A DNA stretch of 63,249 nucleotides, the filler included, from Collodictyon triciliatum (Eukaryota): assembly GCA_043381765.1 (NCBI GenBank). It is 10 parts of 10 records of this genome, joined end to end, with 100 filler letters (N's around TTAATTAATTAA, not from the genome) between each part and the next. Parts side by side here need not be neighbours in the genome. Positions count along the whole stretch, not along the records: positions 50,700 to 56,924 come from JBHJMP010004628.1; 9 more parts are not named here. One strand, written 5' to 3'. The notes under the pieces were generated by a model. It had not been told where the DNA came from. It saw only the letters and a list, made by a program, of their open reading frames with translations, and did not search any database. The translations under genes were made by a program, and so were the position numbers. Of the stretch, positions 6,243 through 63,249 are shown one piece after another; within the stretch, counting starts at the first letter, position 1; each line of letters starts with the position of its first letter.

Positions 6243-6342
6243 NNNNNNNNNNNNNNNNNNNNNNNNNNNNNNNNNNNNNNNNNNNNTTAATTAATTAANN
6301 NNNNNNNNNNNNNNNNNNNNNNNNNNNNNNNNNNNNNNNNNN
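6243..6342. other. Artificial contig-joining spacer N44-TTAATTAATTAA-N44 (same spacer at 12582-12681, 18921-19020, 25263-25362, 31602-31701, 37938-38037, 44273-44372, 50600-50699, 56925-57024)
   Basis: Nine identical 100-bp spacers carry a six-frame stop linker. The segments between them are 6225-6242 bp and roughly size-sorted. N runs at 4321-4377 and 10137-10178 lack the linker and are ordinary scaffold gaps. Confidence 0.98.
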
Positions 6343-12581: not shown

Positions 12582-12682
12582 NNNNNNNNNNNNNNNNNNN
12601 NNNNNNNNNNNNNNNNNNNNNNNNNTTAATTAATTAANNNNNNNNNNNNNNNNNNNNNNNNNNNNNNNNNNNNNNNNNNNNT

Positions 12683-31339: not shown

Positions 31340-31961
31340 TCTGCGTGTGCTTTTGCGTGACCTGTGCGTGAATAGTGCGCCATAAATTGAATGGGATTTT
31401 TGTAATTTTTTAACTATATATCCACACTCTGTGTCAATGGAAAGAAGGAAAAGCTAAAATAAATAAAGGCTTCTTTTTGTTTTCTTTTTGCTTCCTTTTT
31501 GTTTTCTTTTTGTTTTCTTTTTGTTTTCTTTTTGTTTTCTTTTTGTTTTCTTTTTGTTTTCTTTTTGTTTTCTTTTTGTTTTCTTTTTGTTTTCTTTTTG
31601 TNNNNNNNNNNNNNNNNNNNNNNNNNNNNNNNNNNNNNNNNNNNNTTAATTAATTAANNNNNNNNNNNNNNNNNNNNNNNNNNNNNNNNNNNNNNNNNNN
31701 NAAGAAAAAGAAAAAAAGAAAAAGAAAAAAAGAAAAAGAAAAAAGAAAAAAGAAAAAAGAAAAAAGAAAAAAGAAAAAAGAAAAAAGAAAAAAGAAAAAA
31801 AGAAAAAAAGAAAAAAGAAAAAGAAAAAAAGAAAAAGAAAAAAAGAAAAAGAAAAAAAGAAAAAGAAAAAAAGAAAAAAGAAAAAAAGAAAAAAAGAAAA
31901 AAGAAAAAGAAAAAAAGAAGCCATTAATATATTTGTATTTCATAGATTCTTAGTAGCTTTT

Positions 31962-37904: not shown

Positions 37905-38230
37905 CAAATCAAGCAAATCAAGCAAATCAAGCAAATANNNNNNNNNNNNNNNNNNNNNNNNNNNNNNNNNNNNNNNNNNNNTTAATTAATTAANNNNNNN
38001 NNNNNNNNNNNNNNNNNNNNNNNNNNNNNNNNNNNNNAACAAAACAAAACAAAACAAAACAAAACAAAACAAAACAAAACAAAACAAAACAAAACAAAAC
38101 AAAACAAAACAAAACAAAACAAAACAAAACAAAACAAAACAAAACGGAGAGTTCGATTTAGGTTGGAGGGTTTCGTTTTCATGGGGATTATGGCTATGAT
38201 TTTTGGTTGTGATTATAGTCATATTGGATT

Positions 38231-41200
38231 TTATTCGGCCTCCTTTGTGGACGGGTTGCTACGAGAGGGAACGCTCCAGGGCATGGACCCCATGCTTCTC
38301 GCAGCCCTTCTGTTGCTGACCAGGTTTGGGACAGGCTCTGTAAGGGAATAGTGCTGAGTAAAGTACGACTCGCCAGTAGGTCTTTTGTCTTCGTCCATCC
38401 TGCGGCGTTCTTGAATAGCCTTTGCTGCTTGGTTCAGTTCACACTCTTCCACAGAATACAGCGATCTGATTTGTTGGTCGTACATTCTAGAAAGATGTCT
38501 CCCTTCAATTCTTAAAACGATGATTTTGTTCACCAACACCCGGGAATGCTGCGTTGCCGAGTAAAAGTACTCGACGAGGTTGCAGTGGGTCAGCTCAGCG
38601 ATAGTCTGATTTTCGTACTTTTTACACGTTGCATCTATTCTAAACTTTGACAACTCCGACAAATCGGAAATGTCTTGTTGAGAAATATGGAATAGTTCAA
38701 GAAGGACACTCTTGTGACCGTTAATGATATCTTTACCAAACTTCTCCCAAGGTAGATGAAAGACCTTCAGAAACAAACTGCGAAATCCCATGTCCCAAAG
38801 CCATTGGACGAATTCTCCGTGAAACATGTCTTTTATAAATGAGTATTTAGCAGGGAGCTTTCTGTATACAAATGTCTCTGTTATTGGGTCGTTCGAGGTA
38901 GAAAAAGATTCTATGTAATCCAATATATCGTCCAGAGTAGGTCGCAGTTTATAGTTTTGTCTCCAGCAAGCTTCAATTAATTTGTGGAAAGCAAATGGTG
39001 TATCAGATGGTATTTTAGGCCTCATACCTCGGATGGTAAGGTTTCGTGTGTAACTTTCGTTCAAAAATGGCTCGGTGCCCGAAAACATATACCAAAGCAG
39101 CAGGCCAAAGGCATATATGTTACTAGGCGTCCCACGATGTCCGACGTTGATTCCCTCATAAGGCGCGTATTCAGGGCCGTCTTCGTCGTAAAAAGACTTA
39201 CAAACCACATCATGGATTTCTGGAGCTTGCCAACAACATGTTCCGTATTGCTTCCATTCTCCATACATCGTCGGTAAATGAGACCCCACCTTTTCGCGGC
39301 TGCGTCGGCTTATTATACCAAAGTCTGATATCTTGATTCGATCACTTTCAACCATGATGTTATCTGCCTTGAGATCTTCATGGTAGAGGTCCAAAGTCTG
39401 CATGAATTTTAGGCCCATGCAAATTTGATACGAGTAATTGATGATACATAAGTTGCCTGGTTTTTGGATTCCCTGGTCTTCCATAATTGTTTTCAGTGAA
39501 ACACCTGCATATCCCATGACCATATAAAATTCACCGTCTATCACAGAGGCTTGAAAAATTTCAACTATATTGGCGCAGCCTCTGCACTCTGCCAACATCT
39601 GAGCCTCCAAGATAATGGAATCAAGAACTTGCTGCAATGTCTGCGCCCCACTGGCTCGGATGGGTTGAATTTTAACTACAGCTTTCTTACCAAGATAATT
39701 TTTTGTTAGGTAAACCCTTCCAAACGACCCTTTTGCGATGTACTGAATCAGTTCGATAGGTTCATCCGTCCATATGTTTTGCAGTCTACCACGAATGCTT
39801 CCAAGGTCCGTATCACTGCCCTGTTTCTGGCTGCTGGTATGTTGTCGACGTTTCACTTGGGATTGCCGCTCCATAAGCCCTATTTTATATATTTACTCCT
39901 TAATTGAAGAAATTCCCTTCATAATAAATTTATCGATTTTTCTGTTAAATGTTTTTTTTTCAGAGAATTTATGAAAAGTGATGAGAAATTGGATAAAAAA
40001 GCCTATTGAAAAGCCACCTTCTTCACTGTATACTCTCCCCTTCTTTACCATCATAATATCAAGGTTGTGTCCATAAGTACATCTAGACAGATCTGAGTTG
40101 GTAAAATGCGTCGGTGTCCGAATGATTCCAATACTGGCATGTGCACGACATATGTAGCATTGCATTTCAGAATGTAAAAACACATTGGGTCGGATAGATA
40201 ATATTCTATCCTTCAAAAAGCAAATAATATCAAAACACTCCGGGGATGGTGAGTGATTTGCTTCTACATAGTATTTTCTAACTTTTAGGGTTAGTTTGTC
40301 TCCCTGAATTAAAAATAAAACAATAAAATCACTTCCTGGGACCAGATCAAATGATACATGAGGTCTATCTCTGTCTGTATATGTTGGATAGTTCTGCCTC
40401 CCAGAAAGATGAATCAGAGCAGTATTTTTAAAAAAGTAGTTTTGGAAAGTTGCATCAGCTGTCGTATTTTTTGAAAGTCGAAGTGCATGTATGATAATAT
40501 TGCTTTGGTATGACTCATCTATTCCTCGTTGACTTATTAAATCGATGGATACTTCTGAAATGCAGTTCCATTCAGGCGTTTCATTCCATATTGCTTTTAG
40601 ATTTTCATTCAACCTCATCAAAAACGGAAACGCGATACATTCTTTGTTAAACATGATTCCAAGTCCAAATCGGTCAAACATATTCAAAACCAGTGAAAAT
40701 ATTTCATCCTCGATAGTAATACCAAACAATCTGTTCAGTTTATCTCTTAGTTGTTTGAGAAGCACAATCCCACCATGTTCTTTGCCAACTCCTCTGAAGC
40801 TAAAAACACATCGAAATATATTTACCAAGAAGCATGGGTCCAAAAAAACTGTGCTGCTAAGGCCTTGAATTCTGTGATACCATACAACCGACCCCAACTC
40901 ATGGAGGAAAATCATGGATGCCTTACAGGTACTGCTATCCATGTTCAAAGTCGAGCTGCAATAGTGTTGGAGCATATCGAAGGGCATATATTTGGTTGAA
41001 TTTCGACAGCCATCGACATAGTTTTTTAACTGAAAGTACGATAAAGGTATATGTTTGTTTACATATTCAAGACTCAGCATCCCTCTATAGATAGAACTTT
41101 TCAGTTCAGATATACCAACACCGGTGCGGTTACTGACCTTGATACTAGTCTCTATAAAAAAGTGCCCTGGATATCTTTTGACTAGTTCATCAATGTCATT

Positions 41201-43506
41201 CTGCATTCTGCGGGACCATAATATTTCCTCCTTATCCTGGTGCGTTCCAACGATGATAACAGTAGATTGCGGAGAAAAGTCATCCATCATCTTAACCCAC
41301 CGGTTTAAATTGTTTTCGGTTATGTATTTATCAAGGCGATATAGAATTAGGATTAGCGCTCCAGGTGTTAGAAAAAAAGGGTGAGTGACCTGAAATTCAT
41401 CCTGTCCCCCAAAGTCCCATGCTGTTACAGTGATGGAATCCCCTTGATTGTCGACAGAAGAATCAAAAAGTACCAAATCAATAAATTCAATACCGTCTGT
41501 TCTTTCTTTCTCAAGTGAAACTGCACTTTTAAACTCGTTTCCATGTTGAGATATGGAATCCACGATTGTAGATTTCCCTGCCATGGATTCACCTAGAATA
41601 AGAAGTCTTCCACGCGACCATTTTTTCGAACCGCCTTTCCTCGTTTCTCGAATGAAAATAAAAAGCCCTTCAGAACCTTGACTGATAACATTTTGAGGAA
41701 CATTCTCTATAGGGTTTCCTTCGACGAGCAAACCAGAGGTCAATTTATTTAAATCTCCTATAACATCGGGTAAAATACTGACCTGGATTGTTTTTTTTTT
41801 GGGCGTGTGTTAACTTTCTTGATTTATACCATATTATCTCATATAGACCTTCCGATACATAACATGCATAAAGCCAAACACGACCACGTGGAGAGAAAGT
41901 TTGATTATAACCTCTCTTTTTTTTTCAAAAAAAAAAAGCATTGTTTCATTTTCGAATACCTTATTGAATCTAATGTCAAGCATCGACAAATCTTGCAAGT
42001 TTTGGACAAATTGGGGTATACATGTTATCTGCGGTGTGTATAAATATTTTCATATTTGGCTACTTTTAACAAGCCATTTTAATATATCTGCTTCAAAATT
42101 TTAAAAAAAAAAAGGATAGAAAAGGGGAAAGAAAAACAACATACGAGATTACAAGACAAGTCTAGGTGTCGTATGTCCCCCATAAGACGTAAACACACAG
42201 GAAATTCGACCAGCTAAATATCTGGAGTAAGTAAACATCACTAAATAATACATAAATTTATCAAGTACCTGATTTCTTCGGAGACAGAGTTTCCTGATAC
42301 TTGTTAATGATGAAAAATATGTAGGGAGAGAACTGATCTGCCAGGTATAAATTAGGTTAAGATGAGTCATGCTAGTCCATTGATATCATAAACTAGGATA
42401 ACATAGGCATTAAGAAAATGTGTTTCAGTAAAAAAAAAAAAAAAATAGACTTTGTTGAAGGAGAAATCAATGGCTTCAAGTGAGGAGCACTGATACAGGT
42501 AATCTGAAATGTCCTCCAAATCTTTGTTGGTTGCCAGAAGGTCATACATATCGAATAGTATTGTGGATTTTTCTAGGTCACTAGCTTTGGAATCTAATAC
42601 CCGTTGCATCTCTCCCCAACTAGGTATCTTAGTGAGTGTAATTGGTATTCGTATTACAGCACTATTTTTACTCTTCAAGTTCAATTTTTTCAACCGCGTG
42701 AGCATAGAAATTCCACTATCCAATAATTCAATCTATTTCGTTGTAGAAAGAAGGGCAATAAATTAGATGAATTAGAATTGCTTGATGATCCTATTTTTTT
42801 TGCCGTAAGAAGTGTAAAAAACAAACAAACATTAACTAAAGGACATGCTTTTTTCTATGTATAAAATAGTGAAATTTTAAAGTATTGAAACGATTTAAGT
42901 TCATCAAATATTCAATAGTTATCAACAACAAACTGTGTTGTCACTTATGTCCAAACACGTCATTTTTTGTAAGGCAGAAACTCCCAGCGGTAGAAACGAG
43001 AGCTGGTTCTTTTCAGCATACAGCCCATACAGTGATGTTAATAGCGATATACTACTCGGCAATTCTCTCAGGCGATTACCTCCAATCCACAGTGAGTAAA
43101 GATTATACAGATTTGAAATACCGAGTGAGAGGCTCTCGATCTTATTATTTGCAATAGACAAAAACTGAAGATTGGATAGATGGTCTAGGAAAGAAGGATA
43201 GGTGTCTAGCTCGTTATTGTTAAGGAAAAGCGCCTTCAATATTCTCATATTCCGAAATCCGTCAGGAAGCTCAGTGATATTATTTCTCTGTAGGTAAAGT
43301 GCCCGCAGGGAGGAGAGATGAGACAATTTCTCAGGAAGTGTTTGAAGACGGTTTCCAGCCAGGTCGAGCTCTTGCAAGCGGGTGAGTGTGATAATCTCTC
43401 TGGGGATTTCGTGAAGGCCACGGTTTGACAGGTTGACATCTGCTTTGGAGGAAAGGGCGTTGAAGTCTATCTCACTCCCAAGCTGCGTGATGCTTCGGGT
43501 ACTCAT
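38231..43506 (-). CDS. Roco protein kinase (LRR-ROC-COR-TKL kinase-SAM-like tail), about 1490 aa
   Basis: Exons 43506-42934, 42732-42451, 42337-42269, 42213-42145, 42028-41960, 41782-40018 and 39879-38231 join in frame. LRRs, then ROC (GESMAGKST, TDGI, WDFGGQ, VGTHQD, VSNRTG), COR (FLHELGSVVWY, VFLDP), and kinase (GSFGRVY, VVK, HEDLKADN, DFG, APE). Confidence 0.95.
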
Positions 43507-44372
43507 ACGCGGCAATCTGTATTGATTTGGTTTGCAAAAATCTTTGTGGATAGCTTCTCACAAGCAGGTCGGATGTGATCGAATCGAACTTGAGATGATC
43601 ATGTCATACATGTGGAATAATGTTTAGGGAAGTCCCACCAGATTTATTCCTTTCCTCGATTTTTTTTCGTTTTCTTTGTCTCTTTTTTCTTGTTTCTTTT
43701 TGTTCTTTTTGTTCTTTTTGTTCTTTTTGTTCTTTTTGTTCTTTTTGTTCTTTTTGTTCTTTTTGTTTTCTCGTTTTCATTTTCATTCTCATTTTTTCGT
43801 TTTTTAATTTTTCATTTTTTCATTTTTTCATTTTTTTCATTTTTTTCATTTTTTCATTTTTTCATTTTTTTCATTTTTTCATTTTTTTCATTTTTTCATT
43901 TTTTTTGATTTTCTTATTTTTCATTTCTTTTTCTCTTTTCTCTTTTTTCTTTTCTTTTTCTTTTTTCTCTTTTTCCTGATTTCTTTTTCTTTTTCTTTTT
44001 CTTACTTTTTCTTTTTCTTTTTCTTTTTTCTTTTTTCTTTTTTCTTTTTTCTTTTTTTTCTTTTCTTTTTTCTTTTTTCTTTTTTCTTTTTTCTTTTTCT
44101 TTTTCTTTTTCTTTTTCTTTTCTTTTTCTTTTTGTTCTTTTTGTTCTTTTCTCTTTTTCTTTTTTCTTTTTTCTCTTTCTTTTTTCTCTTTCTTTTTTCT
44201 TTTTCTTTCTCTTTTTCTTTTTCTTTTTCTTTTTCTTTTTCTTTTTCTTTTTCTTTTTTCTTTTTCTTTTTTNNNNNNNNNNNNNNNNNNNNNNNNNNNN
44301 NNNNNNNNNNNNNNNNTTAATTAATTAANNNNNNNNNNNNNNNNNNNNNNNNNNNNNNNNNNNNNNNNNNNN

Positions 44373-46285
44373 TGTCAAAATCAAGCTGAAATCAGGAAAG
44401 CTCCACATTTTGATTGTTGTGTCATCACTTCCTGACAAAAATTTCGTGCCATCTGAGAGAACTGATATTCCGTTTACTGGACCTCCATGTTCACTCAGAA
44501 TATGTATGGTCACTCCATTTGAATAATTCCAAATTCTAATTGTATTATCACTGCTTCCAGAAATAATTTTAGAGCCATCAGTAGAAATCGAAACAGTTCT
44601 CACTATTCCAGTGTGCCCATTGAGTGTGCGAATTAAAATTCCATCTAAAATGCTCGTAATTTTGATTGATTTATCGCTGCTTCCAGAAACAATTTTTGTT
44701 CCATCTGATGTGATTAGAACGCAGTTCACAGAATCAGTGTGAACTTTTATATCATGGACTAATGTTCCATCAAAAAAATTCCAAACCTTAATTGTTTTAT
44801 CAGCACTGCCAGATACAATTTTTGAATTATCAGGAGTTAAAGCAACACTCGTTACTATTCCAGTGTGTCCATTCAACGCTCTAATCAATTTTCCATCAGA
44901 TATGTTTGTTATTCTTATTATTTTATCGTTGCTTCCTGATATAATTTTTGATCCATCTGAAGTTAAAGCAACTGAGTTGACTGATTCAGAATGTATTTCA
45001 AATGATTGAATCAAAGAACCGTCTTCAACATTCCATAACTTGATTGTTTTATCCGAACTTCCAGAGATTATTGTGGAGCCATCTGCTGTTAAAGTTAATG
45101 CGTTAACTTCATTTGTATGTCCAATCAATGTCTCGATTAAATTGCCATTTGAAAGATTCCATATTCTAATGATATTATCTGAGTGCCCTGAAATAAAAGT
45201 TGACTTAGACTGAGAAGAAATGATACTTGTAACTTTGGAACCTCTTGAGTAAACAGGACTTCCATCATTAAAATTCCAAAGTCTTACAGTTCGGTCTACG
45301 CTCCCAGAAATAATTTTTGAGCCATCAGGGGATACGAAAACACTTAGAACAGTACTAGTATGGCCAGACAAAGTGCGAATCAATGCTCCGTCAGAAAGGT
45401 TCCAAATTTTGATTGTTCGGTCTATGCTTCCGGAAACGATGTACGAACCATCAATAGTAACAGCAACGCTCCAAATACCATCATTATGACCAATTAATGT
45501 GCGAATCAAATCTCCATCAGAAAGGTTCCAGATTCTGATTGTTTTATCCCAGCTTCCAGAAATAATATTTGAACCATCAATAGTAACAACAACACTCCAA
45601 ACATAATCAGTATGATCAGTCAAAGTGCGAATCAAAGCTCCATTATAAAAATTCCAAAGTCTTACAGTTCGGTCATCACTTCCAGAAACAATTTTTGAAC
45701 TATCAGGAGTAACAGCAACACTTAAAACATCACCAGTATGACCAATTAATGTGCGAATCAAAGTTCCATCAGAAATATTCCAGATTTTGATTGTATTATC
45801 TAAACTTCCAGAAACAATTTTTGAGCCATCAGGAGAAATTGCAACATTGCTAACATAACTAATATGACTAGTCAATGTGCGAATCAAAGCTCCATCAAAA
45901 ATATTCCAAATCTTTATTGTATTATCACTGCTTCCAGAAACAACTTTTGAGCCATCAGGAGTAACAGCAACACTCCTAACAACCCAAGTATGACCAAACA
46001 ATGTACGAATCAAAGCTCCATCAGAAAGATTCCAAATCTTGATTGTATTATCACTGCTTCCAGAGACAATTTTTGAACCATCAGGAGTAACAGCAACACT
46101 CCACACAGTACTTGTGTGGCCAGCTGCAACTGTGTAAATCGAAGAAACTTGTGCAGAGGTCGATGAAATATATACAAGGATGGTGGCAACTAATAGACGA
46201 ATATGTTATAAAAAGAAAAGAGAGTGATTAGAAATGAAAAGGGCTTACCCAGTATTATTTGCTGAAGTTGTGGACTTTTCCTCAT
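44373..46285 (-). CDS. Signal-peptide-bearing WD40 protein, at least 14 repeats of about 42 aa with high internal conservation, 3'-partial
   Basis: Exon 1 (46285-46249), a 59-nt GT-AG intron (46248-46190) and exon 2 give MRKSPQLQQIILVATILVYISSTSA-QVSSIYTVAAGHTSTVWSV..., in frame with ORF 44325..46106. Confidence 0.9.
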
Positions 46286-50599: not shown

Positions 50600-50699
50600 N
50601 NNNNNNNNNNNNNNNNNNNNNNNNNNNNNNNNNNNNNNNNNNNTTAATTAATTAANNNNNNNNNNNNNNNNNNNNNNNNNNNNNNNNNNNNNNNNNNNN

Positions 50700-50823
50700 A
50701 ACCACACAATCCGGGGTTTTCCACTGTCTCGTCCACAGCTCATTTCTTGTCCTAGAGGCGAAGGCGGTTTCCTCGGCTTTGTTTTCTCTCAATAAACTGT
50801 TGAAAAGAAACCAATAAAAAAAA
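50700..50823 (+). mobile_element. Second copy of the same dispersed repeat 3' end
   Basis: aaccacacaatccggggttttccactgtc...aataaactgttgaaaagaaaccaa, followed by a short A tract. Confidence 0.65.
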
Positions 50824-51038
50824 TGAAAGTAACGAAACTGTTTGCAATTTTGAGATTCTCTTTATTCCTAGCTATCTACGATCACTACAACCACTAATCC
50901 ACTAATTCAGAAAACTAGGACATTGCCCTATTTTTTCCGCATTTGCTCCGTTAATCGCTTTTCTCATGACTTTTGCTTAGGATTCCACAGATAACCGAAA
51001 TTCCCTTGTAGAAAAAGAAATTTATCAGTCTCTTTCTC

Positions 51039-51270
51039 TTGCACACTCCGACCAGATCTTTCAAAAAAGTTCGAGCAACTTCAGACCCGAATCATAGGCA
51101 CATATTAGACCCACCTCACCATTTCCGCCAGCACACCACTATCGACTGGAACAGACAGCCTCTAATGCTCCAATGCCCAACACCAGCACAAGACGACTAT
51201 TTAGTCCCTCTCGTGAGGAATATTCTTTCTTTTTTAAAGCAAAGTAAAGATCAGTAAAAAAAAAAAAATA
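51039..51270 (+). mobile_element. Possible 5'-truncated retroposed fragment (ORF end directly followed by poly-A)
   Basis: GC-richer island whose stop codon TAA runs straight into an A tract. Confidence 0.3.
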
Positions 51271-52229
51271 TAGAACAATAACCACCGATCAACTCAAGAT
51301 CAAGCAAAACAAAAAATTACTCAGAAACAAAGCTTTTTTTCCATTTTAAACAAAACACAAAGTGCAATCCTCAATAACAAAAGTCGTTTTAATTTTGTCA
51401 GAAAGACAAAAGAGTTCATCGAGAGTGGAGTGGCCTGTCAGACGCGGGCAAAGAAAAGTAAAAATAAAAGACACAAACGCAGGCAAAAGATGAGATCTTT
51501 CGACGAAACTTTCTATGAATAGCTTCATCCTTGCTTTGCATAGTCCCGTATCATGTTACTCACCAAACAAAGCTAAAGACTATTCTGGAAACTCATCTAC
51601 ATATCCAAATAACTACGTATTTCAACTATTCCTTTATTCTGCGTAGGTTTTTTGAGGCTCTTGCTTTTTGAAATTGATTGCCGGCTCAAAAAGTTGGAAA
51701 TGACCTGTCACGAAGCCTTCCTGTTGCGGATAATTGTTGGCTGCGCATCCATATAATGCGAACTTTCGATATTCCCGTGTTTTTTGTTTTGTTTATTTCT
51801 TCCATCATCTGAGCTTTAGCTAAACTATTTTAATGTTATTAATGCTAATTTAAAGCGAATTCTAGCCCCATGCCGTGCAGCTTGTGACACTTTCTGGGGG
51901 CGTGGTGGTGATTGAATATCTGGTTACCGTGCTGCCCATATCACCCTCACTTCGATGGATTTTGCGCAGGCGCAGACTTTATGTACATCTCCTTGATGTT
52001 CCGTCTTTACTTTCAGGTTGTTTATTTTGATCTGTGTGTCATTCGATTCTGATACACCTTTTATTTTTATAGAATTCACATTTTTTTAGTGGAAAATTTA
52101 ATATCTCGTTCACATATTGACTGCACTCGCTTTTTGAATTATTTTCCATTAAGTGATACTATTATCAAAATAAAATGCCACGAAGATAATCCAGGGTTGA
52201 ATACTAAGCTCTTCATCTTCTGACTTGCG

Positions 52230-52760
52230 CTGGGGGCAACGTTGTAGTCCAGCTGGCATGGGACAGCGTCTGACCTGCGCGAACGTGGTTCGAACCGCAC
52301 AGGGCGCGTGGTGTGTGTGATTCTGGCCCTGTATCACGCATTCCCTGAGTCCTCCTCCTGCGCCTTCGGTTATACCCAATCCAGGGCAGACGGGGTGTGC
52401 TTCCCGGACAACAGAGCACACCCCACAACATCTCGAAGAAAATGACGTCACCAACAGAGTGCTTCCTTGAGAGAGGAATGAGATACCATATCTACGCCGA
52501 ACCTCGACCCCACAAAAACACACCCCAACAGAATTATCCCCCCTCTATTCCATGTCTGCCCTTCTTGGAAAACCCCCCATGCCCCCCACACACCCCTTTG
52601 TAAGACCCTGGCCACAGGCCAAACCGCAGGATGCAATCCTGAGTACCGACTACTTCTCCGCCGCACGGCCAACAAGTGGCGCCCATACAACCGATGGCTA
52701 GCGAACCGAAGCAAACATCCACACGGTCCTGCACAAAATTGAAAGGAAGAATAAAAAAAA
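52230..52760 (+). mobile_element. Candidate tRNA-derived SINE-like element
   Basis: A-box-like TAGTCCAGCTGG (52245-52256), anticodon-arm-like GCGT-CTGACCT-GCGC, B-box GGTTCGAACC (52287-52296), GC-rich body and an A-rich tail with AATAAA. Confidence 0.35.
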
Positions 52761-53089
52761 ATATAATATCACCGATATTTTGAATGAAAAGTATTTGCTA
52801 TTTTTAATTACTTTCATGAATCAATTTATTTAGTCACAATAATATCAAACAAAATGTTGTAAGCTCATCCATTGATATGAGCAAGAGTGCTTGCATATTG
52901 AGAGATTTATTCATACTATGATTATTGACTTATGTAGTTGGTTTACGTTTATGTATTTCTGAATTAAACGACAATAATTTGAGAATGATACGTTTAATAT
53001 TAGATAACTAAACCAACATCTTCTTGGTTATAAAAGCATATACAAAATTTTCTACAAACATTTGAACAATTTTCTATTTTATTACTAGA

Positions 53090-55084
53090 ATGACATGGAA
53101 TTCAATGTCTTTTGCAGTCGTCTTGCTATTGGGTGTGTTATTAATTTTTATGATTTTCATGTTTTCTTATTGAACCAAACGCATGAAACTTATTTTGAAT
53201 ACATTTTTAGGATGAATAATCTGCAACCCAGTGTTATGTTAAAGGACAAGACTACTTGATTCGCACATTGCTAGGACACTCTAATCACAGTCGAAGAGTA
53301 GCTGTTTCTTCTGATGGTGCGAAAGCTGTTTCTGGAAGCAACGATGAAACAATAAAAATCTGCAATCTTTCTGATGTAACTTTCATTCGCACATTGAGTG
53401 GTCATACTGATGCTGTTTGTAGCGTTGTTGTCTCTTCTGACGGCTCAAAAATTGTTTCTGGAAGTATGATAATACAATCAAAACTTGGAACCTTTCTAAT
53501 GGAGCTTTGGTTCTCACATTTACTGGTCATACTCATAACGTATTTGGTGTTGTTGTTTCTCCTCATGGTTAAAAAATTGGATCTGGAAGTCGAGATACAA
53601 CGATTAAAATTTGGGGCATATCTGAGATGGCTCTTCAATTCCGTTCAAAGAGCAAGTCCCGCTCCAACCTCAACCTCAATCTTAATATCAATCCCAAGAT
53701 GAATACCAATATCAACTCAATTCTCATATCAATCTCAGTTCGAGTCCCAATTCTAATCTCCTCCAGAGTCTCCTGCCATTCGCTCTGTAGAATGATATGA
53801 AAAGAAAAACTCGGAGAATTTTGGATTCGAGGTGGAGATTTATAAAGGCATCGCAGTGATTTCAGTGCCATTCTGCCGTACACCAAAAACCCCGGAGAAG
53901 TGCCATGGCAGCTTCATTCTTACATACAAGTTTGATGGGATATCCGGTTTGTAAATTGGACTTAGCAAAATCAAGAATCCGTTCCTCAATCTAGACAATA
54001 TGTTTGACTTCAACATAATTTTGAATGCGCACTATCTGATAGTCTCTGCAACGAAGTTAAAGTACATAAACACTGAAATCGGTGTTTTAGTTTTTTACAC
54101 ATGGAACGCAGGGCAAGATGCGTTCGTCAAAGACTCCATCATCTGCTACAGAAATACATCGAAGAATTTCCAACTCGGTGCTGCCATCTCAAATGTCAAC
54201 ACCATTGTAGCCATAGGAATGCATGTATATGACCATTCTGGAGTTGCCACAAACACCGGATGTGCACACATATACAAAAGGATGGACAATGGCGGATGGG
54301 GCACGAGAGTCACCATTACTGCTCCGAACCCAAAGCTGAATGACCGCTTCGGCCAGTCCGTGCCCCTTGGAAGCGTAACAATATTGGCGGTATCCAACAA
54401 TCCCGAGACAGTTTTCGACCAAATTGTGTTTGTCAATGAATTCAAGGACAGATAATGGAAGGTTTCATAGACCAACACTGACGCCAACGAGCTCGGATTT
54501 GGATGGGTTATTGAGTTCAATGCAAACGTCTCTATGTTTCCGCTGTGAATGACGGGAGCATTGCCACGAACACCGGGTCGATTCTGAGCTACACTCTGAA
54601 TGACGATGGCCAATATGCGTTTGCATCCACAATCAAGCCAAATACTGTCGTTGCTGGGAAGCATTTTGGATTCAGCTTCAGCTTTTCTACGGATGGAGAC
54701 CGACTTGCTGCGGGAGCAAAGCCCTGTGCAAATGGGTAAGCCTGCAACATCAAGGGTTTGTTACCTGATTTCCGTTGATTTTTTTTGTATTTACTTTTCT
54801 CTTGCACACTAGCTCAATTATATTCCCGTCGCATAAGTTCGATGCATTTGTTCACAAAGAGTGGGAATGATTGGAGCGAATACTACTATGTGGAGTCTCC
54901 GGTATCCGACGGCTCTGATGCGTATGGATTTGATGTCGATCTTGAGGAAAGCAATATCCTGGTCTCTGCTCCATATGACAGCAGCGCTTCGCAGAAGGGA
55001 AAGGTCTACTTCATCAAGAAGCAAAACTACCTCTCTCTTGATTACTTTCTTGATGCCTTCATCATACACAACACAGCCAGATGA
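53090..55084 (+). pseudogene. Pseudogene: signal-peptide-like exon, WD40 repeats, S/T/P stalk, FG-GAP (integrin-alpha-type) propeller repeats
   Basis: WD40 units resemble those at 44373-46285 (IRTLSGHTDAVCSVVVSSDGSKIVSGS), with a 1-nt frameshift near 53467 and an in-frame TAA. Then SPAPTSTS..., ENFGFEVEI, DRFGQSV, HFGFSFSFSTDGDRLAAGA and DAYGFDVDL...LVSAPYDSSASQKGKVYF, with further stops. Confidence 0.8.
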
Positions 55085-55400
55085 ACCCATGATAACAAAA
55101 AGAGAAGAGAAAAGAAGAGAAAAGAAGAGAAAAGAAGAGAAAAGAAGAGAAAAGAAGAGAAAAGAAGAGAAAAGAAGAGAAAAGAAGAGAAAAGAAGAGA
55201 AAAGAAAAGAAAAGAAAAAAGGATTCAATAAGTAATTAACATCAGTGCTAATATTTTAGTGGTTTTATTCTGTTTTCGCGGAGTATCCATGTGGTAAAAA
55301 AGCATAGGTCTGCTTGAAAAAAACCCAGAGAATCCCTCCATCTATAACGACTATTGTCAGAAAACATATATTAATATCTATTTTAATATTACTTACTTTC

Positions 55401-56924
55401 TTAAGCTGATGTTTTCTTTCTCCACTCAGCTGCTTTTTCAGTGTCCTTCTCAACGCCCCATCCATTTTCATAGCACTCAGCCATCATTTGAGCCTGGAAC
55501 TTTGTGAACTTACCCTGCTCACAATAGGCAGCAAAGCCCGCATCAAAGGAAGCAGCACCGATTGAAAGTAGGAGAGATTTGTTGAATTGATTCAATCCTG
55601 TGGCATTACTGATTTGGATGTTTCCACCTTGCAGCTTTCTTGGGCCGATAATCTGGACTGTCTTCGCATCTTGGACTCTGATGGTATCAATCATATTCAT
55701 CGCATCACTTGTTCTGTTGAATACAGCAATTAAGTGGTCTGGCTTTTCTTTCTTGACTAGGTATTTTCCTTGGGTGTAGGTCACTTCTGGTTTTTGCATG
55801 CTGTACGTTTGGTTTCCATTTGCTACATCCCAAATACGTATAGTGTTATCATAACTTCCAGAAACCAGCCAATTTTCACCATTCGGTCCTTGAATACTAC
55901 AAATATTTATCACAGTACTTGTATGGCCTTCTAATAATTGGATTTGGTTTCCTGTGGCTACGTCCCAAATACGTATTGTTTCATCCTGACTTCCCGAAGC
56001 CAACCAATTTTCACCATTCGGCCCTTTAATACTGCAAACACTGTTGACTTCGCTTGTATGGCCTTCTAATAATTGGATTTGATTTCCCGTGACTACGTCC
56101 CAGATACGTATTGTTTTATCATGACTCCCAGAAGCTAACCAATTTTCCCCATTAAATCCTCGAATACTGCAAACACCCATGACAGGACTTGTATGGCCTT
56201 CTAATGTTTTGATTTGGTTTCCTGTGGCTACATCCCAAATACATATTTTTTTATCATAACTTCCAGAAGCCAACCAATTCTCACCATTCGGCCCTTTAAT
56301 ATTGCTAACACAACTGACATCTCTTGCATGTCCCTCTAATTTTTGGATTTGGTTTCCTGTGGCCATATCCCAAATACGAATTGTATTATCACGACTTCCA
56401 GATGCAAGCCAACTTTCACCACCCGGTCTTTGAATACTGCAAACGCTTTTGACATAGCCTGTATGACCCTCTAATGTTTTGATATCTTTTCCAATTCCTA
56501 AATTCCAAATACGTATTGTCTTATCCTGACTTCCAGAAGCCAACCAACTTTCACCATTCGGTCCTCGAATACTGCAAACACAATTGACATCCCTTGAATG
56601 TCCCACTAATGTCTTGACATGACTTCCTGTCGCTACATCCCAGAGACTTATTGTTTTTGACTCACTTCCAGAAGCCAGCCAACTTTCACCATTCGGTCCT
56701 TGAATACTGCAAACGCTATAAACAAAATCTGTATGGCCTTGCAATTTATCATAAGGAATTCCAAATTTCACACTATTCATATTTGCATTATCAAATTCGC
56801 AATCACCAAGCATCGAATTCGTAAAATCAACACCATCCAAGTTAGCACCAGTGAAATTGGCTCCATCAATCATTGAATTACTGAGATTCGCATTCGGAAT
56901 TTTAATGTTTGATAGATCCATACC
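55401..56924 (-). CDS. Pentapeptide-repeat, 7x 45-aa highly conserved WD40, Sel1-like C-terminus; 5'-truncated, NLR/STAND-like architecture
   Basis: Intronless ORF: DLSNIKIPNANLSNSMIDGANFTGANLDGVDF...VKFG; seven GH...SVCSIxGPNGExWLASGSxDxTIRIWD units; QISNATGLNQFNKSLLLSIGA; AQMMAECYENGWGVEKDTEKAAEWRKK. Confidence 0.9.
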   Translation of the reverse strand, partial: GMDLSNIKIPNANLSNSMIDGANFTGANLDGVDFTNSMLGDCEFDNANMNSVKFGIPYDKLQGHTDFVYSVCSIQGPNGESWLASGSESKTISLWDVATGSHVKTLVGHSRDVNCVCSIRGPNGESWLASGSQDKTIRIWNLGIGKDIKTLEGHTGYVKSVCSIQRPGGESWLASGSRDNTIRIWDMATGNQIQKLEGHARDVSCVSNIKGPNGENWLASGSYDKKICIWDVATGNQIKTLEGHTSPVMGVCSIRGFNGENWLASGSHDKTIRIWDVVTGNQIQLLEGHTSEVNSVCSIKGPNGENWLASGSQDETIRIWDVATGNQIQLLEGHTSTVINICSIQGPNGENWLVSGSYDNTIRIWDVANGNQTYSMQKPEVTYTQGKYLVKKEKPDHLIAVFNRTSDAMNMIDTIRVQDAKTVQIIGPRKLQGGNIQISNATGLNQFNKSLLLSIGAASFDAGFAAYCEQGKFTKFQAQMMAECYENGWGVEKDTEKAAEWRKKTSA

Positions 56925-57024
56925 NNNNNNNNNNNNNNNNNNNNNNNNNNNNNNNNNNNNNNNNNNNNTTAATTAATTAANNNNNNNNNNNNNNNNNNNN
57001 NNNNNNNNNNNNNNNNNNNNNNNN

Positions 57025-57829: not shown

Positions 57830-58760
57830 GCTTTATATCGACGCATGGGACTAACACAAAAATGGAGTGCCTCGACTAGCAAATTTCTTATATTGGCTAG
57901 GCCTTGTGCTTGCATGAAAGAGACAAGGCGGGGTTGAATCTCTTTCTCAGCCTCTTTCCACATGTCTCTTCTCACAGGGTCTGACTAATAAAGAACGTGC
58001 AGGTGGCGAAGGAAGCTGTTGAGGAAAGAGACTTGTATGATGTCATTCAGCCTATTATCATGAATGGGTGGCTGGTTGTTGAGTCTTGCTTTGCGTGAGT
58101 ATATGCGTGTTATCCACATAGTCCATAGCAAATGACCTCGCGTCACTGCCCGGAATGTTTTTGCCTCTGGACGCAGCTGTTGCAGAGGTCCAAATATCCC
58201 CTGGATTGGGCCAACGGCTGCAGCCGTCTTGAGTGTCAGTCGAATAATCTCACCGGCTGTTTTGCGCAGGTTTTGAGCGAAGGGACATTGCACAAATGTG
58301 TTTTCAATCGATTCATCACGGTTGCTGTAAAGTGTGCATTGTCGGGAGACTTTGCCAGATTTTGCCGCGCGTGTGCCTATCCATAGCTCCCTATTGGCGA
58401 TATTAACATCAGAAAGCGATAGATTTGGAAGGACTTGCGGGGTTCGTGCTTGTCTCCAGCTCGCGGTGAGCGGGGTATGGGTGGTGCCTTTGAAGTGGGT
58501 TGCAAGGCAGTCAGCGACAAAGTAGAAGAGAAGTGGGGCTAGATGGCAGTCTTGGTAGAAGCCGCTTTGTCTTTTGGTTTCATCTGTAGGGCTGTGTGCG
58601 GTCAGAACCCTAGTTGTGGCATTGTCCTGCAGCTTCCTGATAAGTTTGGTGAACTTGAAGCAGAATCCTCGCTTTTTTAAGATGATTTCTAAGGCTTCAT
58701 GGTTCGCATAGTCGTATACTTTTTCAAGGTCATAGAATCGTACCGACACACTTGATTCAT
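57830..58760 (-). mobile_element. Degenerate non-LTR retrotransposon (L1/Tx1-like RT plus zf-RVT) with internal deletion
   Basis: DLEKVYD..NHEAL..IL...GF and SGFYQDCHLAPLLF (cf. G.RQGCPLSPLLF), then no YADD, jumping to C...ESIENTFVQCPFA and LWTMWITR. Confidence 0.85.
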
Positions 58761-59499
58761 TTCCATCGACTTCGTATTGCGACTGAGCTTTATGTTCCCA
58801 ATTTATGCACGGCCATGACATCAGTTATCGCGGATTAACTCATAGAAAAGAAATCTGAAATCTTTCCGTGTATCATAAAAATAAAACATTTATTGCATCG
58901 GATCAATCAAAAAAAAAAAAAACCTCTCACCAGAAAAAAAACATCACATGAATTATTCTTAGGCAATGGCAAAAAAATTAACCATGGAAAATAAAAAAGC
59001 GATTGTTTTAGAAAGAATATATGGATGGAAAACTATTAGAAAATTTCATCATAAAACTTGCACTCGTATTGTCCATTTCTTTAGTAGATTGCTATGCGTA
59101 GTTTATTGTGTCACAGAATAAGGAGCGAGAGAGAGAAATACTTTGAGATATACACCCGTTTGTTTGCCATTCGATTGCGCACGAATTTTGAAGGAAGTTG
59201 GTTAGGGTACATGATGCATTCGTACATTAATAAATAACCATACGTGGTCGCCAGTCTTTCACATGAAATGAGTTTACTTTGGTTGGTGTGATGTTGAAAG
59301 CAATCGCCTCGAATAATATGGAACAATCAGACCAATAGTGATTGCTATTGGGATGAGGACATAGGTCGACGGTGACGGGGATGCTCGGCTGGGCGCGCAT
59401 AACGACCATGCCTTTTATACAAAGACGGTTTGTTCCACGAATCTTACTACCAATTTGGTTGTGTTTTTGTTTTCGGTGGGTCGGCAAAATGGTTAAAAA

Positions 59500-62177: not shown

Positions 62178-63249
62178 TTCATTTTTTTTTGGTTCGTTCC
62201 TCTCAAGAGGGCAGGGCTTCTAATAGTTTTCTTTTAAAGAAAAAGGAAAAGGAAAAAAAAAAAAGAAGAAGAAGAGAAAGCGTCCAAACTATAGGCATAG
62301 GAATAGGTGCTTCAGATTAAGCTCAAACCCATTTGATCTTCAGAACGAAAAGAGGCCGGCGTTGTCGATCGCGCCATACTCGATGGAATGAGCCAGTTGC
62401 AGCCCAAGCAGCCACGGACGCGGAAGGGATCGTCTCGGTCACTTCAAAAAAGATAATGAAAAATGACAATAACTGAGAAACAATGAGTAATGAAATGAAA
62501 AAAAAAAATGAAAAAAAAAGGCACAAAGTGGATATGAAAATGAAAATTAATGCTGAAAGAATAAGCAAATCATTTTATTAAATTGATAATGAGAAACGAG
62601 AATATTTTGATTTGAAGTAGGATGTATACATTGATGAAAAGCGCAAAAGCACGTAATTAAAATATATTCCATATTTGTATAAAGAGAATAAATGAGGAAT
62701 TTTCAAAGAAACTTTTAGTTACAATATTGGAAATTACAATATTAACGATTTTGCAACTAGTTTTTTTGTCATTTAATCAAATATATATGTGCAAAATTAA
62801 TCCAATTTATCGTTCCACAGAGAATTAGTTGGCCGGCGACGTTGCGGCGACAGTCAATTTCCCACCGAATCCAAACGGCATTGCGCGAATGTGACAACCG
62901 ACAAGCGCAACAAGCTGACCGGTGACAGATCACCAGCCGCAACGCGGCAAACGGAGATGAAGGCTCCTTGCGTTGGGACATAAAGCCTCAGGCACGATAA
63001 ACCTATCTATGCCACCATTGAATCGAATGAAGAGGAAAAAAAATATCATATGAATGACAGCTAACCACACCCATAAGCCGTTCAGTGGTAGCAGTGCCAG
63101 AAACCAAAAACCAAAAGCCAAAAGAAAAAGCCAAAAGAAAAAAGCCAAAAGAAAAAAGCCAAAAGAAAAAAAGAAAAAAAGAAAAAAAGAAAAAAAGAAA
63201 AAAAGAAAAAAAGAAAAAAAGAAAAAAAGAAAAAAAGAAAAAAAAAAAA

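Follow-up and report, generated by a model that had tools for sequence, protein, structure and literature searches.

The window analysed here is a stretch of 63,249 nucleotides (1-63249) from the Collodictyon triciliatum assembly GCA_043381765.1, in which about ten contigs of ~6.2-6.3 kb each are concatenated via identical spacers. One of them, contig JBHJMP010004628.1 (positions 50700-56924), carries on the minus strand a 507-codon stop-free frame, which runs from a TAA at 55401-55403 up to the contig end at 56924 and whose product is referred to here as P0001. This open reading frame (ORF) is probably the sensor end of a nuclear host gene for a large NACHT-type STAND (NLR-like) switch protein, with the 5' half lost at the end of the 6.2 kb contig; the NTPase that would be encoded upstream is inferred from relatives, and any immune role is putative. 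The ORF and its boundaries are composed as follows.

56925-57024: artificial spacer, N44-TTAATTAATTAA-N44, which cuts the gene on its 5' side; the next contig is unrelated
56739-56924, minus strand: pentapeptide-repeat block and short linker, P0001 residues 1-62, ending ...NSVKFGIPYDKLQ; frame open to the contig end
55794-56738, minus strand: seven WD40 units of 45 aa (135 nt), P0001 residues 63-377, identified by Tandem Repeats Finder, Pfam, AlphaFold2 (AF2) and Foldseek
55545-55793, minus strand: family-specific tail, P0001 residues 378-460, with the conserved core IIGPRKLQGGNIQISNATGLNQFNKSLLLSIGAASF and no Pfam family
55404-55544, minus strand: a single Sel1-like helical unit, P0001 residues 461-507, ...FQAQMMAECYENGWGVEKDTEKAAEWRKKTSA, with a sub-threshold Pfam match and AF2 helices
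55401-55403, minus strand: TAA stop codon; the relatives P0170 and P0237 terminate within ~10 residues of the aligned position

Architecture of the reading frame and its repeat units

An earlier sequence-only reading of this DNA had described a pentapeptide block followed by a WD40 array and a terminal motif, and the Pfam matches together with a motif at P0001 residues 443-457 confirm this order. The pentapeptide block matches PF00805, the family of tandem A(D/N)LXX pentads, with 49.6 bits (cut-off 20.2; P0001 residues 3-36) and appears in the AF2 model as short strands with a period of ~5 residues (per-residue confidence, pLDDT, 64-82). It is colinear with residues 232-293 of a second relative, P0366, and, in P0170, with the region that starts at residue 1567; each of these two proteins extends further upstream. 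Because P0366 matches P0001 from residue 1 and has 231 residues further upstream, the alignment indicates that the ATG at 56919-56921 is internal and is not a start codon. The frame had also been called intronless; it is indeed uninterrupted, but this is not distinctive, as the window has other uninterrupted frames of 1.66-1.98 kb.

The WD40 units match PF00400 in seven stretches (218.8 bits, cut-off 27, E 1.2e-66). Tandem Repeats Finder reports a period of 135 at 55808-56719 with 6.8 copies and 78% matches, and cutting at the GH anchors yields exactly seven units, each of 45 aa. The loop CSIQGPNGESWLASGS is found in the repeats, and the unit loop C-S-I-x-G-P-N-G-E-x-W-L-A-S-G-S adds three residues to the common 42-aa unit of relatives. 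The sequence-only reading was correct as to the seven 135-nt repeats and their loop, but the units are not near-identical as it had stated, with pairwise identities of 69-85% in DNA and 51-82% in protein. Given this range and a synonymous divergence (dS) between units of ~0.54, there is no sign in the sequences of recent homogenisation among them.

The most variable residues of the units are those that directly follow GH, the x of GSxD and some close to the end of the unit. The strings that follow GH are, in unit order, TDFVY, SRDVN, TGYVK, ARDVS, TSPVM, TSEVN and TSTVI, all seven exactly as previously listed, and the x of GSxD, also noted as variable, is E, Q, R, Y, H, Q and Y. Positional entropy in the seven units correlates with that in 23 independent 45-aa units of relatives (Spearman 0.76), and positions 4, 5, 7, 13, 26 and 43 are among the twelve most variable in both sets. 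In WD40 folds the residues right after GH and the x of GSxD sit on the top face of the propeller. The ratio of nonsynonymous to synonymous divergence (dN/dS) between units, a calculation proposed with the sequence-only reading, is 0.44 overall and 0.31 outside the six most variable codons; it is 1.38 at those six, a circular value in that the codons were chosen post hoc.

The AF2 model places 28 strands between residues 68 and 376, equivalent to seven blades, with pLDDT mostly above 90, and the best Foldseek matches are 7-bladed WD40 propellers (e.g. 5yzv, TM-score 0.87; target TM-score 0.84-0.91). The seven units are therefore predicted to form a closed seven-bladed beta-propeller. This propeller also scores above the cut-offs of two TEP1 models, Beta-prop_TEP1_2nd (111.6 versus 89) and TEP1_C (65.2 versus 32).

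The tail that follows is less readily modelled, and its core has pLDDT below 50 both in the whole fragment and with the tail alone (6-row alignment each). Within it, at residues 443-457, lies GLNQFNKSLLLSIGA, a motif of the form G-L-x-x-x-N-x-x-L-L...GA. The Sel1 cap described in the sequence-only reading is present as a resemblance (PF08238, 24.4 bits, E 4.2e-5) but falls under the Pfam cut-off of 30.7, and AF2 predicts helices at 462-470, 475-487 and 495-506 (pLDDT 64-86). We regard the resemblance as real because of the thousands of Sel1-only phmmer matches and the predicted helices, and name this single sub-threshold unit 'Sel1-like'. The C-terminal superstructure-forming repeats by which STAND-type proteins are recognised are represented here by the pentapeptide, WD40 and Sel1-like parts and, in relatives, by TPRs. 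The exact P0001 sequence is without a counterpart in a 15-billion-protein collection, a word-based search for longer proteins with tail residues 385-480 gave no match, and a Protein Atlas search with P0001 residues 378-507 gave no usable match.

Relatives sharing the tail and the upstream half

The WD40 part alone matches thousands of bacterial and fungal STAND proteins, and such matches say little; the 132-aa tail is the informative part. A phmmer search with this tail against 1.84 billion representatives gave 3936 matches, and among the best 150 of these, which were inspected, only P0170, P0132, P0172, P0237 and P0002 match over the whole tail. Four of these five are Diphylleia rotans transcripts in EukProt, P0237 is a 183-aa fragment, and each whole-tail relative with a name is a eukaryotic transcript. 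Most of the other tail matches listed are Sel1-only, covering about the last 30 residues (tail ~100-130) in many stretches each, in the manner of Sel1-repeat proteins. A metagenome search with the tail likewise returned 54 loci, none of them a family member, whose matches are confined to tail residues ~68-132, the generic Sel1 unit. The conserved tail module reads IIGPRxLEGGNIQLxNAxGLSxxNKxLLLSxGAASFDxDFVxYCESxKFTKFQAxMMAxCY..G..V.KD..KA.EW, and alignment A1 shows invariant residues at L431, G433, N448, L452, G456 and S459, with all of the family-invariant motifs kept in P0001.

The longest relative, P0170 (2619 aa), has the order CH (43.4 bits), DUF4062 (42.4), NACHT-like NTPase (NACHT 25.6, nSTAND1 24.8, NPHP3_N 23.2), TPR_12/TPR_10 (TPR_12 136.5), pentapeptide, WD40 and tail. 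Its Walker A motif is AESGIGKS and its Walker B motif FIFLVD, and it carries at least 11 WD40 units of the 45-aa GPNGExW type. P0132 (2169 aa) has a NACHT-like region (24.6 bits; motifs GDSGSGKT and IVFFMDD), pentapeptide, WD40, tail and several true Sel1 repeats (63.6 bits); no Pfam family was matched at its N-terminus. P0002 (2520 aa, a 'complete' ORF) is the best-scoring longer homologue at 1096 bits and has TPRs, pentapeptide, the same 45-aa units and the tail. Its start corresponds approximately to the start of the P0170 TPR region, and it may for this reason represent a Trinity transcript cut at its 5' end, its first Met being internal. P0366, a 392-aa protein encoded on a 1851-nt contig of another public assembly, is 75% identical to P0001 (120/161) and aligns gap-free with P0170 residues 1384-1728 (43% over 345 columns, E 3e-93); its 231 upstream residues align to P0170 residues 1384-1566, the end of the TPR region, and constitute a TPR-like linker.

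The sequence-only reading placed a NACHT-type NTPase upstream of the contig break. The break itself is real, as the spacer at 56925 demonstrates, and because a NACHT-like NTPase lies upstream in two of the three long tail-bearing relatives, assignment to the STAND class is supported by homology, though not by P0002, which has only TPRs in that position. By analogy with P0170, the nearest full-length relative, the part upstream of 56924 would encode TPRs, a NACHT-like P-loop NTPase, and an N-terminal DUF4062 (TIR-like) and/or CH domain. A plausible scenario is that the repeat region would keep the NTPase off, that a ligand bound on the variable propeller face would free it, and that nucleotide-dependent oligomerisation would then gather the N-terminal effector domains.

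A broader relationship is seen with the NACHT-pentapeptide-WD40 proteins of Mycoavidus, Glomeribacter, Mortierella, Podila and cyanobacteria, in which, as in P0001, a pentapeptide block ending in V-x-F-G lies right before the WD40 array (in P0001, ...NSVKFG... precedes the first GH) and a motif of the type G-L-S-x-x-N-x-x-L-L-x-Q-R-G-A follows it. Of the 120 longer homologues listed, 8 have this motif in their last 90 residues, as against none of 120 shuffled sequences; a Walker A is present in all eight, which include Mortierella, Mycoavidus and Glomeribacter proteins and one Nitrospirae protein. The occurrence of the terminal motif in proteins of this architecture, as given in the sequence-only reading, is thereby upheld, and at least 14 of the 120 carry both NACHT (PF05729) and Pentapeptide (PF00805) in precomputed Pfam lists. 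Paramecium pentapeptide and WD40 proteins are also among the homologues listed. There are, however, clear differences: in the Mycoavidus/Mortierella group the motif lies in the last ~25 residues, whereas in P0001 ~50 residues follow it (SFD..F..YCE...FQAxMMAxCY and the Sel1-like unit); the group has canonical 42-aa units of the form SPxGxxIASGS rather than 45-aa units; and identity to P0001 is only 33-46%, nearly all of it in the WD40 part. Relative to this group the Sel1-like end is, on these alignments, an addition, as the sequence-only reading had proposed, yet it is a conserved trait of the tail family and not a peculiarity of this gene.

We also note P0005, a bacterial-looking protein from NCBI (1912 aa) that has WD40 units sharing 50% identity with those of P0001, an N-terminal P-loop domain (nSTAND1 in a precomputed Pfam list), and Sel1-like units (…LQLGIAYHRDGDAEKARLWYEKARAAG…) and TPRs after the WD40 array. 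Sel1-like repeats downstream of WD40 units are thus found outside the protist family as well.

Alternative explanations and the surrounding contigs

Several observations weigh against the ORF being part of a NACHT-type STAND gene. The contig breaks off at residue 1 of P0001, where the pentapeptide block starts, and the NTPase of this gene is unseen, the NACHT scores of P0170 and P0132 are just below the Pfam cut-off of 26.7, and in P0002 no NTPase was found in the 545 residues before the pentapeptide block, which match only TPR_12/TPR_10/TPR_NPHP3. The relatives, P0366 excepted, are only 37-50% identical to P0001. Ligand sensing and an immune role are likewise inferred; positive selection at the six most variable codons was considered and rejected for the circularity described above, and those six positions vary in WD40 repeats generally.

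The P0002 structure raises the alternative, which we consider rather unlikely, of an NTPase-less scaffold of TPR-pentapeptide-WD40-Sel1 order that acts as a protein-interaction platform, e.g. cytoskeletal or ciliary, and not as a nucleotide-driven switch. P0002 is the best longer homologue, sharing the block, the units and the tail, and the 231 upstream residues of P0366 also contain nothing beyond the TPR-like linker. However, P0002 is possibly truncated at its 5' end, P0366 derives from a contig fragment of 1851 nt, and the NTPase is present in the two other long tail-bearing relatives.

That the ORF is instead a dead or incomplete gene copy, the 3' remnant of a gene that lies in unplaced, repeat-rich DNA and lacks a functional upstream half, is improbable. 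The contig is short and unplaced, a neighbouring WD40 gene at 53220-53640 (plus strand) shifts frame at 53465, some metagenome contigs have array units skipped or repeated, and no RNA dataset is among the sequencing-run matches listed. Nevertheless, the gene looks constrained, since its 507 codons are stop-free and dN/dS is 0.31 at the scaffold positions outside the six variable codons, and the family-invariant motifs are all retained. The frameshift in the neighbouring gene may be an assembly error or a strain difference and not a true pseudogene lesion, as one freshwater-metagenome contig has an extra G just after 53465.

Contamination by bacterial DNA, or transfer from a bacterium in the very recent past, is highly improbable: although many STAND proteins of cyanobacteria and other bacteria give high scores with the WD40 part, bacteria commonly have pentapeptide-WD40 fusions, and P0005 has WD40 followed by Sel1-like repeats, the whole-tail relatives that can be named are all eukaryotic transcripts, the 54 tail-matched metagenome loci match the generic Sel1 unit only, the contig has an FG-GAP-like gene in pieces and microsatellites as on other contigs, and its composition is not deviant.

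The compositional evidence is as follows. The G+C content of the ORF is 0.40, and 0.32 at third codon positions, compared with 0.36-0.44 and 0.24-0.52 in other long window ORFs; the correlation of relative synonymous codon usage with other window ORFs is weak (r 0.37) and uninformative. The 3' flank of the gene contains a (AGAAGAGAAA)11 microsatellite, similar to purine-rich low-complexity tracts on other contigs, and such tracts appear to be a compositional hallmark common to the ORF's contig and the others. An FG-GAP_2-like gene convergent with the ORF is in three pieces, between which no consistent GT-AG join was found by eye. Nothing in composition, flanks, neighbouring gene or tail relatives points to contamination or to recent horizontal transfer, so that the horizontal acquisition suggested by the sequence-only reading is not borne out, and the bacterial contamination it had named as a possible refutation is countered by host-like flanks and composition.

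Pieces of this contig of ~150-200 nt, with 0-1 differences, spread across the contig and at low depth, occur in freshwater metagenomes of two studies, indicating a freshwater habitat for the organism or a very closely related one. Four freshwater-metagenome runs gave contigs of ~80-370 nt, and the parts of JBHJMP010004628.1 that they leave uncovered are uninformative. One 151-nt piece reaches 31 nt beyond 56921, and many others align with the repeat array at 90-95%, in some cases skipping or repeating units, which fits paralogues or relatives. Elsewhere on the contig, 52200-52740 is a GC-rich element within AT-rich sequence, with a summed metagenome word depth of up to ~98 and listed pieces that have 7-13 differences over ~110-165 nt; it resembles a repeat that is either multi-copy or widely shared. 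It is without an Rfam match, and an Rfam scan of the whole contig gave zero matches.

Positions 50700-56924 are the sole part of the window physically linked to the ORF. Because the window consists of contigs joined by spacers, the DNA past 56924 is unrelated and the upstream part of the gene is unreadable there, and synteny read across any spacer is meaningless. Searching for that part elsewhere in the window by tblastn with the upstream parts of P0170, P0366, P0132 and P0002 gave 8 matches, all with E of at least 0.81, which is chance level. Other features of the window are listed below.

53955-55084, plus strand: FG-GAP_2-like gene in three ORF pieces (19.4 and 23.3 bits, cut-off 23), convergent with the ORF
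53220-53640, plus strand: WD40 gene fragment on the same contig, with a frame shift at 53465
55103-55216, 20901-21956, 43808-44328 and 63054-63249: purine-rich microsatellites or low-complexity tracts, K/E/R-rich or F/L/S-rich ORFs
44373-46205, minus strand: second long WD40 array, on a neighbouring contig, with canonical 42-aa units (...TPDGSKIVSGSSDNTIKIWN...); open to the contig end
38231-43557, minus strand: ROCO-type gene on another contig, with leucine-rich repeats at 42922-43557, Roc and COR-A at 39893-41809 and protein kinase at 38231-39892
57985-58824, minus strand: ORF on the next contig with a weak zf-RVT match (21.6 bits, cut-off 27.5)
6243-6342, 12582-12681, 18921-19020, 25263-25362, 31602-31701, 37938-38037, 44273-44372, 50600-50699 and 56925-57024: the nine spacers, ~6.3 kb apart

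The second WD40 array is 35-38% identical to P0001 in tblastn, and such arrays seem to be located where the assembly of this genome breaks. In the ROCO-type gene the COR and kinase regions share a frame and are split by a single in-frame TAA (39893-39895), which could be a short intron, a lesion or a site of read-through. The ORF at 57985-58824 is probably a retroelement remnant, judging from its match.

Known systems and biological context

The closest known class is that of the DUF4062-NACHT proteins NWD1, NWD2, TEP1 and NPHP3. In a 2026 preprint these are described as having a DUF4062-NACHT-WD40/TPR architecture, DUF4062 is reported as a TIR-like NADase, and NACHT oligomerisation controlled by WD40 is proposed to activate the TIR-like domain (bioRxiv 10.64898/2026.05.01.722283). 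P0170 resembles them in that its DUF4062 adjoins a NACHT/NPHP3_N-like NTPase, after which come TPRs of the NPHP3 type and WD40 propellers. The tail family is unlike this class in joining TPR and WD40 in one protein with a pentapeptide block between them, in its 45-aa GPNGExW units, in the family-specific tail with its Sel1-like end and in the CH domain of P0170. For the N-terminal half the comparison is that of P0170, the window gene being read only from the pentapeptide block on.

Other systems are more distant. Fungal NACHT-WD (HET-E/NWD) NLRs are also STAND proteins with a C-terminal WD40 array and few variable sites per unit, and their highly conserved internal repeats, for which ~85% protein identity and concerted evolution are reported, are delimited by amino-acid identity between units of at least ~85%, a level above the 51-82% of P0001 (PMC4986451). 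This family has no HET or other fungal effector. APAF-1 similarly places a STAND NTPase under C-terminal WD40 propellers, and its structure 3sfz is among the solved-structure matches (E 3e-45), but it has NB-ARC and not NACHT, two propellers and a CARD effector, and is without pentapeptide, TPR or Sel1 parts. With Sel1-like repeat (SLR) proteins P0001 shares its last ~30 residues, which fit the Sel1 consensus, and P0132 adds true Sel1 repeats; P0001 nevertheless has one sub-threshold unit capping a propeller protein and is not a many-repeat solenoid.

In contrast to those of animals, plants, fungi and bacteria, which have been well studied, the NLR-like STAND proteins of free-living protists have received little attention. 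Among the papers listed by a literature search, none concerns the tail family by its title or abstract start. The parts are all known, and it is their combination, together with the 45-aa unit and its Sel1-capped tail, that marks the gene as a novel variant within a known class. P0001 itself is a truncated member of a recognisable class, and the fragment alone carries no stronger claim and is of modest value.

A more ambitious interpretation, which we offer tentatively and hold to be doubtful, is that a freshwater protist lineage comprising the window's organism and Diphylleia owns an undescribed multi-copy NLR-like family, in which a TIR-like DUF4062 NADase and a NACHT domain would be under the control of TPRs, a pentapeptide block, GPNGExW WD40 units with a diversified top face and a Sel1-capped tail. 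Such a family would provide a ligand-recognition repertoire resembling innate immunity outside animals, plants and fungi, and its tail may complete the pentapeptide helix, with the propeller as an insertion.

Taken with its Diphylleia relatives, the fragment indicates a distinct architecture of DUF4062/CH, NACHT, TPR, pentapeptide, 45-aa WD40 units and Sel1-like tail, one that connects the NWD1/NPHP3/TEP1 group to the pentapeptide-WD40 proteins of bacteria and Mortierella. Should the complete gene be confirmed and the family prove to be expanded, this would provide a tractable case for understanding sensor diversification in unicellular eukaryotes, and for asking whether DUF4062 is a NADase effector there.

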